From the NCBI GenBank assembly GCA_039923935.1, contig JBDTBU010000195.1:1843-65842 (forward strand): a DNA stretch of 64,000 nt, given 5' to 3'. Made by a program: the position numbers and the translations under genes. Below are positions 31,518 to 38,049 of the stretch, piece by piece (position 1 is the stretch's first letter; each line of letters opens with the position of its first letter). Under the pieces are notes generated by a model. It was not told the origin of the DNA. It searched no databases and saw only the letters and a program-made list of their open reading frames with translations. Source of the DNA: Ktedonobacteraceae bacterium. Lineage in GTDB: Bacteria > Chloroflexota > Ktedonobacteria > Ktedonobacterales > Ktedonobacteraceae.

Positions 31518-32579
31518 ATGTCTCCACGCTTGACCGACTGGAGCTTGGCACTGGCTGCCCTGTGCGCTGGTGTGACTGGTTTGCTCAGCCTAATAAGTGG
31601 GCACCTGGAAGAGTGGTTCGTCTTTACGCTGCATGGTATTGCGGGTTTCTGGCTATTGTTGCTCATGTGGGGCAAGCTGCGGCGTGTCTGGCCGCGCCTG
31701 ATTTCGCTTCAACGCTGGGATCGCCACACCATCTTTGGGGTACTGGCGTTGCTGTTTGTCATTGGCGTGACTGGATCAGGCATTTGGTGGGCTGGTGGTG
31801 GCCAATGGTTCTTTGCTGGGTTTAATCTGTTGAACTGGCATATTATCTTGGGTTTCGTGCTTACAGCGGCTATTGTCACGCACATGGTCGCACGCGCCAA
31901 ACGATTGCGTACACGCGATCTTGTAGGCAGGCGACGAGTACTGCATTTTAGCGGCTTGCTCGTTGGCAGTGTCCTACTCTGGCCAGGACAGCAGTTTGCC
32001 GAACGGGTTCTGCAACTGCCCGGAGCGCGTCGGCGCTTCACTGGCTCATACGAAAGTGGCAGTTACGCAGGCAACGCATTTCCCTTTTCAAGCTGGGTCG
32101 CGGATCAGCCACGCCCGCTTGATACACAGACTTGGCAACTTTCACTTGGCGGCGCTGTCACCACACCGCGCACCTTCTCTTACGACGAACTCGTATCTGC
32201 AGGAGATGAATTAGAGGCAACGCTCGATTGTACAGGCGGCTTTTACAGCACTCAACGCTGGCGGGGTATGCGCATCGGACGCTTGCTCGACGCCGTGACG
32301 CTCCACGAAGATGCGCGTTATGTGAGCTTTATCTCGGTGACAAGCTACCGTTGGAGTCTGCCGCTGGAAGAGGCGCGGACAGCGTTGTTAGCGACCCACA
32401 CAGGCTCGGAGCCGCTCGCATATGAGCACGGTTTTCCTCTGCGCTTAATCGCCCCAGGTCGGCGCGGCTTTGAGTGGGTCAAATGGATTACCCATATCGA
32501 AGTACGAACCACGCCCGATCCCGGTCAGGTGCTCAGCATTTTTAGCAGTAGTTTTACCGATGCCGGGCGTGGCATATGA
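31518..32579 (+). CDS. Membrane-anchored molybdopterin-dependent oxidoreductase (sulfite-oxidase/MsrP-like fold) with N-terminal 4-TM His-containing domain
   Basis: C-terminal blocks LDCTGGFYSTQRWRGMRIGRLL and HGFPLRLIAPGRRGFEWVKWITHIEV are typical of the Oxidored_molyb domain. The N-terminal 130 aa are four hydrophobic helices with conserved His. Confidence 0.75.
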   Translation: MSPRLTDWSLALAALCAGVTGLLSLISGHLEEWFVFTLHGIAGFWLLLLMWGKLRRVWPRLISLQRWDRHTIFGVLALLFVIGVTGSGIWWAGGGQWFFAGFNLLNWHIILGFVLTAAIVTHMVARAKRLRTRDLVGRRRVLHFSGLLVGSVLLWPGQQFAERVLQLPGARRRFTGSYESGSYAGNAFPFSSWVADQPRPLDTQTWQLSLGGAVTTPRTFSYDELVSAGDELEATLDCTGGFYSTQRWRGMRIGRLLDAVTLHEDARYVSFISVTSYRWSLPLEEARTALLATHTGSEPLAYEHGFPLRLIAPGRRGFEWVKWITHIEVRTTPDPGQVLSIFSSSFTDAGRGI

Positions 32580-32606
32580 GTTTTTTACTCTTCTGTCCAC
32601 GTAAGT
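32480..32606. repeat. Direct repeat copy 1 (127 bp), covering the functional 3' end of the Mo-oxidoreductase gene
   Basis: 120/127 identical to 34628-34754. All 7 differences are transitions. Weaker similarity continues about 10-15 nt on both sides. Confidence 0.95.
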
Positions 32607-32678: not shown

Positions 32679-33890
32679 CTAGAACAGTTCGGGCCTCTGA
32701 GCTTTCAGCAGTGAAACTCCGAAATGTGCGGTATCGGCTTCTGTGCGGTACGGGGAGTTACGCAGTGTGTGATAAACGCTTTCCAAGTGTGCTGAAAGTG
32801 TATCCATGTTGAACCGTGATGTCACTTCTAGCGCAGCATTCGCGTAGGCCGTGGACATAGGGAAGTTCCCTACTCCCAAGTACGCTTTAGCAAACAGGAT
32901 GTTCCTGTGAACGCTGCGACGCGGGGAAGTGGTCGGTAGTGTTCGCTCCAACTCTTCAAGCTCAGACAGAGCGAGAGCAGGTGAGCCAAGAGGTGCATAA
33001 AGATATGCACTTGCCCGGTTCAATCGCCAGCGTTCCAGGTCCAGGCGGGCCGCAACATTGGGATCAACTGGCACCTGCCCGATCTGGTTCCCAGCAGAGT
33101 CGATAATGTTCAGCGCAGTCGTGAACTCTCCCGTATCTCTCGCTGTATAGGCATAGACCAAGCCTTTCCTCACGTTCACTAGTCCCTGGTAAAATGGGCT
33201 AACACCCTTTACCGCATCTGTAGCTTTAAAATCGGCGAGAGACTGTGTGAGGACAGACTGATTGCCAGAGAGTTCAAACTGGCTTACGCCCGTCTGCGCC
33301 CTTTGTCGAAGCGCGTGTACATACAAATTATACTGCTTTTCCTGATGCGACAGAGTGACAGTTTTTCCAAGGAGTGTACTGGCTGCGGCGGGATTTTGCT
33401 CGGAAACAACATCTGCGGCCAAAACCTGATATTCACACAGCAGATTAATCACCTGTGTGCGATTTCCTGTAGAGTAGAGGGCTGCATTCTCCAACGCAGC
33501 CACGCGCCTTCTAATGTCTTTCGCTACTCTATAGGTCGTTCCGGCTTGCCATGTCCCAGTATATGTCTGAAGTGTTTGCTCGTACTCAGCCACATCGACG
33601 TGTGGACTTGAGAAGAGTTGTGCGGTGGATTGTGATGTAAGCACGCCAAGTCCAGCGAGCGCGAGCGGCATATCAACAATCCTCGCTAAAATGGCTCTAC
33701 GCCCTTTGTCTACTAACATTTCTCCAGCCTCCAAGTGATAGATGAATGACGGATCAATAGGGGTGTCTTCCCTCCCTATTTCCTCGCTGTACACCAGTGC
33801 AAGCTGTCGGGCAGCCCAACCTAAAGCCTTTCGATGACTACGTAGTTCCCGTCCAAACGTGATCGCGTCGAAATCGGTGTCTGCCTTCAT
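32679..33890 (-). CDS. XRE-family HTH regulator with C-terminal TPR-like helical-repeat domain
   Basis: N-terminal ITFGRELRSHRKALGWAARQLALVYSE (HTH_XRE-like), then about 300 aa of helical repeats (..YAYTARDTGEFTTALNIIDSA.., ..LFAKAYLGVGNFPMSTAYANAALEV..). Confidence 0.65.
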   Translation of the reverse strand: MKADTDFDAITFGRELRSHRKALGWAARQLALVYSEEIGREDTPIDPSFIYHLEAGEMLVDKGRRAILARIVDMPLALAGLGVLTSQSTAQLFSSPHVDVAEYEQTLQTYTGTWQAGTTYRVAKDIRRRVAALENAALYSTGNRTQVINLLCEYQVLAADVVSEQNPAAASTLLGKTVTLSHQEKQYNLYVHALRQRAQTGVSQFELSGNQSVLTQSLADFKATDAVKGVSPFYQGLVNVRKGLVYAYTARDTGEFTTALNIIDSAGNQIGQVPVDPNVAARLDLERWRLNRASAYLYAPLGSPALALSELEELERTLPTTSPRRSVHRNILFAKAYLGVGNFPMSTAYANAALEVTSRFNMDTLSAHLESVYHTLRNSPYRTEADTAHFGVSLLKAQRPELF

Positions 33891-34093
33891 ATCGCACCAT
33901 CCTTCACCGTAATAGTAAACCAAGTGAACGTCTAAAAATATGAGTGACTATCACATTTTACTCATAGGAGTGAACGAGGATGTTTGCGTCACTTCACTCA
34001 CATAACCGCGCCTGCTCCCATGTTATCATGATTTTTGGTAGATGTACACATTAACGGTAGTGTTACATAAGAGAACACTGTTGGAGGAAACGT

Positions 34094-34627: not shown

Positions 34628-34754
34628 CAAATGGATTACTCATATCGAAGTACGAACCACGCCCGATCCCGGTCAGATGCTCAGCATTTTTAGCAGTAGT
34701 TTTACTGATGCCGGACGTGGTATATGAGTTTTTTACTCTTCTGTCCATGTGAGT
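34628..34754. repeat. Direct repeat copy 2 (127 bp), carrying a dead copy of the Mo-oxidoreductase C-terminus and the live 3' end of gene 34733-35917
   Basis: The + strand translates to KWITHIEVRTTPDPGQMLSIFSSSFTDAGRGI*, a remnant of the last 32 codons of gene 31518-32579. Confidence 0.95.
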
Positions 34755-35917
34755 TTGTCGGCCTGCAAGCGCTTGAGAAGGGCGGGACGGCGTAGGTGAG
34801 GTTGAACCCAGGTGCGCAAACGTTCTTGAAACTGCTGGGTTTCTTTAAAGTAATCGGCAGCGTCACGCAACTCAACCAAGACTTTCACGGCTTCTTCGTA
34901 GCCTGTGCCTGTACCGCGTGCCGCTGCGATCTCGGCTTGACGCCAATGCGTATCTTTGTGCTTGTGGATATCTTGTAGATGACTCTGCCGAGCTAGCCGC
35001 TCCTGTACACGCTGCTCGTACTCCTGTTTGACGTGTATGGCCTCGCTTTCGGCGTATAGCGTGGTATAGCTGACACGCTCGCCTAACGCTGGGGCTGCTT
35101 TCGTCTTGCCCTGACCCAACGCACGCAACTCTTGTACCAGCAGACGGCTCAGACCCGGCTCATTGCGAGCTAAGCGCAGCAAGTAATCGTTGCTGCGTTC
35201 TTGTGGCAATAGCTCAACCCAGGCCGCGAAATTATCGCTAGGTAAAGGCTTGCCTGTCTGGCTGTGGCGACCTGCCGCAGTGAGCAGTGCTTCTGGCACG
35301 AGCAATAACTCTGCTAGTTCCTGCTGTGCCTCTGTTAACGTGCTAAAAGCGTAAGGGACTGGTGGTACCCCTCTTAGCTCATTATCCTCACCGTCGTCTT
35401 CGCCATCCTCTTCTTCTTCATCATCCTCGTCGTCTTCTTCTTCGCTCCCATCCCATAGCATAGACTGACTGGACAGCCAGCCTATATACAGCGAACGCAG
35501 ATCCCCTGCCAGCAATTCATCGCGAATGGCAATGAACGAGCCAAGTTCACAATCCAGTATCTCGTCAGGCGGTTCCATCTCGCTTATCTGAAAATGGAGA
35601 ATATCATAATCTGCATGTTTGGTAAACGTGACAACGTCCTCGAAATCGTAGCCCTCGATGAGATCGGCTGGTAAGGCTCCATGCGGGAAGCGCAGTGCCA
35701 GTTGTGGCGAACCCCAATTGGCCCAATACAGGAAGCCATCGAAGTATTTATGCAGCACTTTGAGAGGATCGTGCTTAAAGTCACCCCAATGATATTCAAT
35801 CAGGGCGTGGGTAGACGATGCATGAATGTGACTGGAAAGGTCGTTGACCGCATCCAGTTGCGCCCGCGTCAGGGGCCGATCACAGGTCATAAATTCGTAA
35901 CGTTGATATTCGCTCAT
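34733..35917 (-). CDS. Conserved hypothetical protein with central poly-acidic tract
   Basis: 394 aa. N-terminal MSEYQRYEFMTCDRPLT... and an acidic run SEEEDDEDDEEEEDGEDDGEDNE. No catalytic motif recognised. Confidence 0.5.
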   Translation of the reverse strand: MSEYQRYEFMTCDRPLTRAQLDAVNDLSSHIHASSTHALIEYHWGDFKHDPLKVLHKYFDGFLYWANWGSPQLALRFPHGALPADLIEGYDFEDVVTFTKHADYDILHFQISEMEPPDEILDCELGSFIAIRDELLAGDLRSLYIGWLSSQSMLWDGSEEEDDEDDEEEEDGEDDGEDNELRGVPPVPYAFSTLTEAQQELAELLLVPEALLTAAGRHSQTGKPLPSDNFAAWVELLPQERSNDYLLRLARNEPGLSRLLVQELRALGQGKTKAAPALGERVSYTTLYAESEAIHVKQEYEQRVQERLARQSHLQDIHKHKDTHWRQAEIAAARGTGTGYEEAVKVLVELRDAADYFKETQQFQERLRTWVQPHLRRPALLKRLQADKLTWTEE

Positions 35918-36035
35918 GACTATGCTCCTCTATATGGCATCAATGATAGCATATCATAGCACATGAGCAAAAGGTGCGTGCATCTACTCTCCTTGACATC
36001 CTCCCCATGCCTAAAAGGGCAAGGGATTCCCACCC

Positions 36036-36149
36036 TCACGAATGGGTTTTCCTGTTTCGCTGAGGCTTGCCAGTTTGAGCTTTCGCCCTCCCTGGTCTGA
36101 CAGCCTCTCCACAGGCTTCAAATACCGCCAGCCCGGCGGCATGCACATT
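36036..36149 (-). CDS. tnpB: tnpB exon 2 (C-terminal 37 codons plus stop)
   Basis: Encodes NVHAAGLAVFEACGEAVRPGRAKAQTGKPQRNRKTHS*, the family-typical tail that normally follows ...DINAAKN. It is in frame with exon 1 once 36150-36804 is removed. Confidence 0.8.
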   Translation of the reverse strand, partial: NVHAAGLAVFEACGEAVRPGRAKAQTGKPQRNRKTHS

Positions 36150-36804
36150 GTAGAGTAGACGGCCAGCGAGGTTCTGTCTCCAGACCTTTTCTGTCCGTCC
36201 CTCCCCGAACCAGGGCTTGCTGCTTTCACAGCACCCGGCTCTCCAGTTCCAGCATCTGAACAAGTGAATACTGACTCGGACTTATGCATCTCGCGGCCTC
36301 ATCATTCTTTTGTGTTTGATGCCTTTCCCTGTTTCCCTTCCCCGTGTCTCAGGCGTTACCCTGAGCATTTGAGTACTCTGAAAACTCCGTCGTCATAGGC
36401 TCGCACCCTTAGACGATCCCGCATTTGCGCGTCTCAAACGTTCAGTGCGTTTAGGTGCCCATACACGTCCCCTTGAACCAGCTCATTGCTGGTCGTTCAT
36501 CGGAGAGAGCGTCACACACCCGCTAAGAAAAGGCATGTGTTCCGATGTCACCGCCACAGGTATGTTGCGGTGGGCCAACGCTTAGACCACTGGGGACTTG
36601 GGTTCAACCAATGCTGGCTTCACCTGTATCTGCGCACAGGACTTGCGGTGCATCACCATACATACCTTCTGGTTTAACCGCTTTCCCAACATGCTGCTTT
36701 CCTCTTTGAGTTTCCTCGCCAAGTAGGTTGGGCGTCCTTGAGGTCACTTGCTCTCGACCTCATCTCCCTACGGGAGAAATTTGATACGCGCCGAAACGGC
36801 GCAC
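36150..36804 (-). mobile_element. ORF-less group II intron (self-splicing ribozyme), 655 nt
   Basis: 5' GUGCGCC at 36804 downward. Domain V is GAGCCGGGUGCUGUGAAAGCAGCAAGCCCUGGUUC (36241-36207) with AGC triad, 2-nt bulge and GAAA loop. Domain VI is GAGGGACGG/CCGUCU-A-CUC with a bulged A at 36156, 7 nt from the 3' end ...CUCUAC (36150). No RT-like ORF inside. Confidence 0.85.
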
Positions 36805-37872
36805 CTTTGCGGCGTTGATATCTCGGTCATGGACAACGCCGCATTCGGGACAGGTCCACTGGCGGACCTCTAACGATAAGGAGTCGAGAATATGTCCACA
36901 ATGGGAACACCGTTTGGAAGAGGGATACCAGCGGTCAATCTTGACCACGTTCCTGCCGTACCATTTGGCTTTATATTCCAGTTGGGAGACAAACTCAGAC
37001 CAGCCAACATCAGAAATAGCTTTCGCAAGGGAGTGATTCTTGACCATGTTCTTGACTGCCAACGTCTCCACGCAGATCGTTTGGTTTTCACGGATCAGGC
37101 GAGTGGAGAGTTTGTGCAGGAAATCACGGCGGCGATCAGCTATCCTGGCATGGATACGCGCCACCTTCTTGGCGGCTTTGGCTCTATTCTTCGAGCCTTT
37201 CTTTTTCTTCGCGTGCCGACGTTGAGCATTGGCAAGCTTCTTCTCATCCTTGACGAAGAAGTGGGGATTGCCGACTTTCTCACCAGTGGAGAGGATCACG
37301 AAGTCTTTCAAGCCCAGATCAGCCCCAACGGTCTGCTCTACTGGCGTGAGATGGGGAATGTCCTGCTCCACCAGGATCGAGACAAAGTAGCGATCAGTAG
37401 CATCCTTAGAGACGGTCACAGTGCTAGGCTTGCTTCCTTTGGGCAAGGGACGCGACCAACGAATAGCAAGAGGCTCGGCCATTTTTGCGAGAGTAAGCGT
37501 GGCATTGTTCCACGTAAATGCAGAGGTGGTGTACTCAGCCGATTGCTGGTTGCGTTTCTTCTTAAACGTGGGGTACTTGGTTTTTCCATCAAAGAAGTTT
37601 CTGAATGCCTTGTCCAAATGCCTCAAGGCTTGTTGGGTAGGAACACAGGACACCTCATTGAGCCATCTATGCTCTGCATCCTGTTTCAGGAGTGTCAGTT
37701 GGGCAGAGGTGTCGCTATAGTAGAGGCGTTTCTTTTCTTGGTAGTAGGCATCGGTACGCAAGCGCAACGCCCAATTATAAATGTAACGAGCACAGCCAAA
37801 CGTCTGAGCAAGAATGTTCTTCTGCTCATCGGTTGGGTAAAACCTGTACTTCAATGCTCGTTTCTGTTCCAT
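36805..37872 (-). CDS. tnpB: tnpB exon 1 (RNA-guided endonuclease TnpB, IS200/IS605 OrfB family)
   Basis: ALKYRFYPTDEQKNILAQTFGCARYIYNWAL N-terminus. RuvC residues in GADLGLKDF, ICVETLAVKNM and HDRDINAA. Zn finger CSHCGH...CPECG. The unspliced reading ends in an atypical 14-aa tail, VRRFGAYQISPVGR (stop at 36760). Confidence 0.92.
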
Positions 37873-38049
37873 GTTTCACATCATAACAGGTATGGTGTGA
37901 AAAGTCAACAAGAAAGGAAAACGTGCTTCCTCCCCATATGTCAAAGCACAGGGGTATCCGCACGTCACATTCAGATGAGATACAATAAAGAGCAAGACTG
38001 ATGCGTATATCGTCATTTACAAAAACGCAGAGACAAGGAGGGTTTTCCT

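Follow-up and report, generated by a model that had tools for sequence, protein, structure and literature searches.

A group II intron that carries no open reading frame (ORF) interrupts a tnpB gene in a 64,000-nt stretch of DNA from a Ktedonobacteraceae bacterium (assembly GCA_039923935.1, contig JBDTBU010000195.1), referred to here as the window. The gene encodes the RNA-guided nuclease of an IS200/IS605 element. Cas12 descends from TnpB elements, in which the guide RNA (the omega RNA) and the nuclease gene overlap. The best overall explanation of the locus, and in our judgment a probable one, is that the ORF-less intron retrohomed into the tnpB codons for the third RuvC motif (RuvC-III), leaving the guide untouched and making the protein dependent on splicing. 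The intron ends 9 nt before the first conserved hairpin of the guide RNA and so separates the two products of the gene: the RNA would lie whole in one exon, and the protein would need splicing. This position is better explained by a homing target than by a role in guide maturation, which had been proposed in an earlier note made from the letters alone (the sequence-only reading). The intron would sit beside the guide RNA because it base-pairs with the part of the tnpB coding sequence that is best conserved, and this part happens to lie just before the RNA-coding tail. Coordinates for the intron, the element and the omega RNA refer to the minus strand throughout.

The intron spans 36804..36150 (655 nt), begins with GUGCG and ends with CUAC, in agreement with the group II consensus (5′ GUGYG, 3′ AY). 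RF00029, the family covering domains 5 and 6 of group II introns, matches 36243..36150 and scores 52.7 bits, where the gathering score is 40 (E = 1.7e-7 over the whole window); the match terminates precisely at 36150. Domain 5 (36207..36241) has an AGC triad and a GAAA loop and is followed by domain 6 (36150..36206) with a bulged branch-point A at 36156, which is intron nt 649 and lies 7 nt from the 3′ end. A domain 5 helix of 34 nt with an AGC triad and a GNRA loop, followed by a domain 6 with a bulged branch A, is the arrangement by which group II introns are recognized. The fold of the intron has a z-score of −3.1. Compensatory changes occur in domains 5 and 6 among four copies, those of the window and of three metagenomic contigs described below (L081, L082 and L083), and the branch A is kept in all of them. 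The intron is real and its domains 5 and 6 are intact; it may splice, either by itself or with the help of a maturase. No second RF00029 match was found in the 64-kb window, and blastn detected no further intron copy in the window or in 80 related loci. No group I intron family matched, and the sole ribozyme found is the group II intron, which lies wholly within tnpB.

Exon 1 of tnpB (36805..37872) comprises codons 1–356, includes the RuvC residues D185, E269 and D351 and the zinc ribbon, and ends in HDRDINAAK. Exon 2 (36036..36149, 114 nt) comprises codons 357–393 and a TGA stop and doubles as the 5′ two-thirds of the omega RNA. Joining the exons (36805|36149) places the junction between codons 356 and 357 (K356|N357) and yields a 393-aa TnpB with the domains HTH_OrfB_IS605, OrfB_IS605 and Cas12f1-like_TNB; the Pfam E-values for the HTH, OrfB_IS605 (RuvC) and zinc-ribbon domains are 2.7e-21, 2.8e-30 and 3.2e-28. 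Across the junction the spliced protein is collinear with uninterrupted relatives of 386–393 aa from Ktedonobacteraceae and cyanobacteria (identity up to 87%), and K356|N357 itself is collinear with 80 uninterrupted loci and with P0001. The empty site in the closest relative, L084 (GCA_041691195.1), reads GATATCAACGCCGCCAAG|AATGTC. Homology between the window TnpB and ISDra2 TnpB extends over residues 4–376 (E = 1e-80); D185, E269 and D351 align with ISDra2 D191, E278 and D361, and the intron site corresponds to ISDra2 L366|N367. The first two positions of the Asn357 codon are invariant in 65/65 aligned sequences. Exon 1 has a ratio of nonsynonymous to synonymous substitution rates (dN/dS) of ~0.1 relative to its two closest intron-less relatives, which indicates that the element is under purifying selection.

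Without splicing, translation continues into the intron. The unspliced ORF encodes 370 aa, consisting of the 356 residues of exon 1 and a 14-aa tail (VRRFGAYQISPVGR), and Asn357 and the residues that follow it are replaced by unrelated sequence. The sequence-only reading had stated that this product retains all three RuvC residues ahead of an alternative 14-aa tail, and the location of D185, E269 and D351 in exon 1 bears this out. Its intron coordinates, the 655-nt length and the 114 nt from the intron through the restored stop are likewise confirmed by the boundaries, the RF00029 match and the collinear 393-aa product. An exact look-up of the 370-aa ORF in public assemblies found no record. 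A protein search with the zinc-ribbon end joined to the intron-encoded tail returned two ordinary partial TnpB fragments, neither with the tail. Annotation lists tnpB genes of this kind as truncated ‘zinc-ribbon’ or 370-aa proteins and misses their true C-termini.

The target of the intron was examined through its exon-binding sites (EBS), whose loops were placed by a thermodynamic fold. EBS2 (GCGUU, intron nt 224–228, 36577..36581) occupies a hairpin loop and pairs perfectly with AACGC at positions −12..−8 of exon 1. EBS1 (CUUAGCG, intron nt 278–284, 36521..36527) occupies a hairpin loop and the edge of its stem and pairs with CGCAAAG at −7..−1. The two loops are ~50 nt apart, and the exon-binding layout, as modeled, is that of a IIA/IIB intron. 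A terminator or hairpin target of the group IIC type was considered and rejected: EBS2 is present, and the nearby hairpin is downstream of the site, not upstream. Subclass IIC is unlikely because an EBS2 is present and an upstream hairpin target is missing. The sequence targeted, AAC GCC GCA AAG, encodes Asn-Ala-Ala-Lys in the third RuvC motif of tnpB. EBS2 is able to pair with the Asn-Ala codons (AAYGC) in 65/65 family members.

Related introns were sought by scanning metagenomes with a domain 5 sequence pattern that is blind to the flanks. The scan yielded three contigs, L081, L082 and L083, and all three match RF00029 at the gathering score. All three introns end right before AAT ATT, AAT ATC or AAC ATC (Asn-Ile), the start of an Asn-Ile-Leu tail. 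L081 is a solid second case of an intron in tnpB. Its match to an omega RNA profile (E = 1.4e-31) begins with the base directly downstream of the intron and reaches as far as a GTCAA end, and L081 is 84% identical to the window in the intron and 80% identical in exon 2 and the right end. The EBS1 loop of L081, UUUUUG(CG), fits the common target CGCAAAA/G perfectly. L083 has a CCGUG-loop-CACGG hairpin, domains 5–6 that are 96% identical, and a weak match to the omega RNA profile (E = 0.007); both L082 and L083 have right-end-like hairpins with GGGG...TCA ends. The sequence-only reading had mentioned, as an alternative, that the intron may use the element as a safe harbor, and this suggestion is closest to the evidence: the EBS pair with the Asn-Ala-Ala-Lys codons, and related introns sit at the same codon. 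Related introns comprise one solid and two probable occurrences at the site, and the best 80 genomic relatives and L084, the closest known homolog, have intron-less sites. A broader proposition is that an ORF-less group II lineage has specialized on tnpB via the near-invariant Asn-Ala-Ala codons and could invade many TnpB subfamilies, with the guide RNA always made and the active nuclease only in the presence of another intron's maturase. We put this forward tentatively, as a possibility that is on balance doubtful.

The contigs L081, L082 and L083 all break off within the intron, as assemblies usually do where a repeat is multicopy in the sampled communities. Together with the compensatory changes, these breaks would be signs of a live, multicopy ribozyme. 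No match to the domain 5 pattern was found among viral contigs. A blastn search of plasmids with the intron returned only domain 5–6 similarity to unrelated group II introns. One plasmid intron with similar domains 5–6 (L085; Streptomyces sp. YIM 121038 plasmid NZ_CP030772.1, 355531–362626) encodes a reverse transcriptase and stops immediately ahead of the C-terminal portion of an IS630-like DDE transposase, another instance of an intron in an insertion sequence.

The beginning of the guide scaffold was located in an alignment of 65 family members (A1) that starts 60 nt upstream of the junction and runs as far as the right end, using RNAalifold and an explicit pair count. The alignment supports 39 pairs in 9 helices, all of them 3′ of the junction. 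In these helices 85.8% of cells are paired, compared with 37–44% when the partners are slid; the covariation score is 0.397, compared with 0.06–0.11 in the slid controls, and 30 pairs have double changes. The first conserved RNA element is an accessory 5′ hairpin of 6 bp (GCCGCC GGGCU GGCGGU; 36124..36140, exon-2 nt 10–26, −148..−132 from the guide) that starts 9 nt past the splice junction. In it 99% of cells are paired, and three pairs have 23–31 double changes. The core scaffold (35993..36115, −123..−1) starts at exon-2 nt 35, 34 nt past the junction, and consists of a long-range helix (36115–36111/36055–36051, nt 35–39/95–99), the equivalent of stem 1 (36104–36102/36067–36065, nt 46–48/83–85), an inner hairpin, a hairpin with the stop codon in its loop (36046–36029) and the terminal right-end hairpin (36026–36003). 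A pseudoknot is predicted between GAC (36095..36097, −105..−103) and GUC (35997–35995, −5..−3). Both strands are near-invariant, with too little variation for covariation, and their positions are identical to those of the ISDra2 pseudoknot (PMC10097598).

The coding record of exon 2 was compared with this structure. The synonymous rate (dS) to L084 is 0.20 in exon 2 vs 0.71 in exon 1, and from about codon 368 (near exon-2 nt 34) onward variability no longer follows codon position. Taken together, the comparative data place the intron outside the scaffold: 9 nt separate it from the first conserved RNA element downstream, and 34 nt from the core. By homology with ISDra2, the 5′ end of the mature omega RNA should be near 36108–36140.

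The C-terminal tail has further features in the relatives. The accessory hairpin also codes for protein, and the peptide reads AAGLAV, AVGLTV or AEGLSV across relatives (A1 columns 73–89). Residues 2 and 5 of this peptide covary because their codons base-pair, a dual RNA and protein constraint. In-frame stops occur within the conserved tail of L002, L005, L024 and L021, yet conservation at the nucleotide level goes on past them as far as the right end, so that the tail is kept for its RNA and not for its protein. In-frame insertions of ~30–90 nt are present near the accessory hairpin region in the cyanobacterial relatives L042, L046, L072, L079 and L080.

The consequences of splicing were assessed against ISDra2. 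The functional ISDra2 scaffold covers −116..−1, the 5′ region from −231 to −117 is trimmed off and dispensable, and the C-terminal domain of the protein (376–408) is dispensable as well (PMC10097598). Deep mutational scanning of the ISDra2 protein tolerated stop codons only past residue 376 (PMC11844463). By this comparison the guide scaffold would be complete in spliced and unspliced RNA alike. Splicing would probably gate the active nuclease via the protein and not via the guide, because the unspliced product lacks the invariant Asn357 and because stops before residue 376 inactivate ISDra2 TnpB. The proposed course of events begins with a group II intron that would have retrohomed into a tnpA-less IS200/IS605 element at AAC GCC GCA AAG. 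One promoter would then give a transcript that covers exon 1, the intron, exon 2 and the right end and extends into the flank. With or without splicing the guide scaffold could fold, active TnpB would be encoded by spliced RNA only, and the product of 356 residues with the 14-aa tail would be inactive. Splicing and any further mobility of the intron would require a maturase/reverse transcriptase acting in trans.

Several points weigh against this retrohoming account. The EBS1–exon pairing is 6/7, with a single A-A mismatch. No Rfam group-II-D1D4 family matched intron domains 1–4 at E-values up to 10, and the predicted subclass and the completeness of domain 1 are judged solely from the fold and the exon-binding loops. 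L082 does not match the omega RNA profile. A large protein search found no homolog of the L082 and L083 3′ exons, and tblastn against plasmids gave nothing meaningful. Both are short contigs that break within the intron, so that their 5′ exons are unseen; they are probably introns in other or degenerate tnpB tails, a resemblance at the level of motifs. The ISDra2 truncation data come from a homolog with five extra residues in this segment. Splicing, the 5′ end of the omega RNA and transcription are all inferred from sequence. The window contains no ORF of at least 150 aa with a YADD-type reverse-transcriptase motif that could supply the trans-acting factor.

The last of these points and the EBS1 mismatch also belong to the alternative that fares best, in which the intron is a decaying relic that no longer splices here for want of a cognate maturase and a fully matched EBS1, and in which tnpB is functionally a pseudogene that looks intact only because the insertion is recent. 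The intron is ORF-less and without a reverse transcriptase in the 64-kb window, one position of EBS1 is mismatched with its intron-binding site (IBS1), the window holds no second copy of the intron or of the element, and the unspliced ORF is without record elsewhere. Against decay, the intron has kept intact domains 5 and 6, its branch A and the consensus at both splice sites, and the changes between copies are compensatory. Both exons are open, and the ends and promoter of the element are intact. Ktedonobacter racemifer is reported to carry 34 reverse-transcriptase genes of the group II type, with TnpB (COG0675) as the commonest COG in its genome (PMC3236041). With dozens of such genes reported in Ktedonobacter genomes, action in trans is possible, and a trans-acting maturase in the source genome is plausible by analogy. 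We regard a relic as improbable.

A second alternative accepts that the intron splices and holds that maturase-dependent splicing is kept by selection as a regulator, so that TnpB activity stays low while guide RNA is still made. The benefit would be to limit damage to the host or to tie maintenance of the element to the activity of introns. The lineage persists at its site in diverged elements, as the 84% (intron) and 80% (exon 2 and right end) identities between the window and L081 illustrate, the tnpB frame is intact on either side of the intron, and a similar idea has been proposed for RmInt introns and their host insertion sequences (PMC4615759). However, these observations do not tell a regulator kept by selection apart from an intron that simply homes into a conserved multicopy site, and the best 80 genomic relatives and L084 do without the intron. 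We regard a selected switch as unlikely.

Guide maturation, the proposal of the sequence-only reading, supposes that the intron interrupts or abuts the scaffold and that no functional omega RNA arises until the intron is spliced out. Intron and omega RNA would indeed share one transcript, as the sole promoter-like site is upstream of tnpB, and a big folded ribozyme that ends only 9 nt ahead of the first conserved hairpin might conceivably interfere with folding or processing. Yet all covarying helices and the predicted pseudoknot are 3′ of the junction, in exon 2 and the right end, and no covarying pair spans the junction even when 210 nt of upstream sequence is added. In ISDra2 everything 5′ of −116 is dispensable and trimmed (PMC10097598), and the junction is here at −158/−157. 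RNAalifold did propose a 3-bp pairing across the junction, between an exon-1 GAC or GAU and the right-end GUC. This candidate was rejected: it shows no covariation, its triplet shifts when more sequence is included, and an exon-2 GAC occupies the exact ISDra2 pseudoknot position. Splicing-dependent maturation of the guide is accordingly very unlikely. Of the two placements that the sequence-only reading had allowed for the 655-nt insertion, just upstream of the scaffold is upheld and within the scaffold is not. Its suggestion that splicing gates an active RNA-guided nuclease would apply, given the loss of Asn357 and the ISDra2 stops, to the protein and fails for the guide RNA; it had also named an omega RNA 5′ end downstream of 36149 as contrary to its proposal, and ISDra2 homology and covariation both point to such an end. 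The idea that the 3′ splice site itself sets the guide 5′ end, freeing exon 2 as an omega RNA precursor in place of TnpB-dependent 5′ processing, has the 9-nt proximity to the accessory hairpin in its favor and can hardly be credited, since normal group II splicing ligates the exons without releasing a free 3′ exon and since the best 80 relatives and L084 have the same hairpin and no intron.

The host is a tnpA-less IS200/IS605 element of the IS1341 type that, including the intron, covers 35993..37974 (~1982 bp, or ~1327 bp without the intron). Its right end at 35993 (...GGGGAGGATGTCAA|GGAGAG...) is 157 nt from the splice junction. This end is set by relatives: in 77/80 related loci similarity stops at ...GGGGAGGATGTCA(A/C) and the sequences then diverge at once, and the GTCAA end of the element is common to these 77. 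The sequence-only reading had expected a right end 150–200 nt from the intron, marked by an imperfect hairpin at 36004–36025. Both expectations agree with the measured end and with the hairpin at 36026..36003, which has one U-U mismatch and is at the same time the last hairpin of the omega RNA. On the left, the boundary and the TCAT-like transposon-associated motif are placed approximately: the boundary follows a TCAT(C) motif near 37978–37974, where similarity to L001 and L084 starts. A nested subterminal hairpin at the left end (37921..37965; ACGTGCGG-ACCCCTG...CATGGGG-AGGAAGCACGT) is kept in the relatives L001, L004, L006, L013, L015 and L084.

A sigma-70-like promoter (TTGACT-17-TATGAT with a TG extension, 37880..37908) ends 7 nt before the tnpB ATG (37872). 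It is the single promoter-like site on the minus strand between 35800 and 38100, and its hexamers are conserved in relatives. Ahead of tnpB the element has no ORF, and it has no Y1 transposase TnpA. Like most of its relatives it is non-autonomous; the absence of tnpA defines the IS1341-type subgroup and is no failure of family membership. Both element ends, the promoter and the reading frame are intact. The flank directly 3′ of the right end contains the presumed 16-nt guide (GGAGAGUAGAUGCACG, 35977..35992), assigned by position.

The element has unremarkable chromosomal genes as neighbors, among them those for an FAD oxidase, molybdoenzymes and a DNA methylase. Directly downstream of the right end is a 394-aa ORF (34733–35917, minus strand) that contains an acidic stretch rich in Asp and Glu and has no match in Pfam. 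The distance between its start codon and the right end is 76 nt, which puts the presumed guide in the region upstream of this ORF. A 127-nt direct repeat with 94% identity occurs at 32480–32606 and 34628–34754. The first copy is the 3′ end of a molybdopterin-oxidoreductase ORF (31518–32579), and the second, 2.1 kb downstream, overlaps the stop of ORF 34733–35917. A 414-aa ORF between the repeats (32679–33923, minus strand) has a helix-turn-helix-like N-terminus and no Pfam match. The repeat region may be a small insertion that duplicated the end of a gene.

If a lineage of introns homes to the RuvC-III codons, it would show one class of mobile element exploiting the sequence conservation of another. 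The site is just 5′ of the RNA-coding tail, and each invaded element would, if this is true, keep making guide RNA. The result would be a three-layer dependency among selfish elements and an on-switch for TnpB. The locus would offer a test system in which to ask whether the supply of guide RNA and the supply of nuclease are uncoupled in vivo.

The literature searched for group II introns inside tnpB yielded one brief remark, and no published account was found in which an ORF-less group II lineage occupies the RuvC-III codons of tnpB as its fixed site. The remark, made in passing, notes group II introns inside IS605 transposons of two cyanobacteria, one of them PCC 7107 (Kapitonov, Makarova and Koonin 2016, PMC4810608). 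As described there, these are likewise group II introns in IS200/IS605-family elements, and they carry ORFs, unlike the window intron. The host system is best compared with ISDra2 of Deinococcus radiodurans (PDB 8BF8, 8EXA, 8H1J; PMC10097598), whose guide RNA likewise overlaps its gene at the 3′ end, with its pseudoknot at the positions predicted for the window element and a C-terminal tail encoded by RNA-constrained sequence. ISDra2 differs in having tnpA and no intron, and its scaffold is shorter (116 nt) and lacks the extra inner hairpin of the window element.

Ribozymes are joined to such elements in another way in the IStrons, chimeras of a group I intron and an IS200/IS605 element found, for example, in Clostridium (PMC4227781, PMC10690162). 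IStrons resemble the window locus in coupling a self-splicing ribozyme to a TnpB/omega RNA element, with a splice site near the guide RNA and interplay between the two conceivable. In an IStron the 3′ splice site, placed at or past the right end, overlaps the guide RNA, which creates a conflict between them (PMC10690162), and the group I ribozyme flanks the element at its 5′ end; the element lies inside the intron and is spliced whole from host transcripts. The window intron, in contrast, is a group II intron nested in tnpB that would excise only itself and has no overlap with the guide scaffold, and the locus is not an IStron.

ORF-less group II introns that are mobilized and spliced by the proteins of related introns are known from families in Thermosynechococcus elongatus and from archaea. 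The window intron resembles them as a short lineage present in several copies and presumably dependent on a protein in trans, and it differs in having no identified parent ORF-containing intron and a fixed tnpB site as its target. Homing to insertion sequences has its precedent in Sinorhizobium meliloti, where the group II introns RmInt1 and RmInt2 have natural homing sites in ISRm2011-2 and ISRm17, respectively, and where control by splicing has been suggested to limit mobility of the host element (PMC4615759). In both settings a bacterial group II intron homes to a multicopy insertion sequence through EBS/IBS recognition, and splicing conditions the element protein. RmInt1 and RmInt2 encode their own reverse transcriptase/maturase and reside in IS630-type transposase genes or inverted repeats, whereas the window intron is ORF-less, and the gene in which it resides encodes the RNA-guided nuclease of an IS200/IS605 element, with the guide RNA lying just downstream. 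The locus, in which one selfish element is nested in another, belongs to a kind already known in general: group II introns in insertion sequences are well known, and a single case is no surprise.

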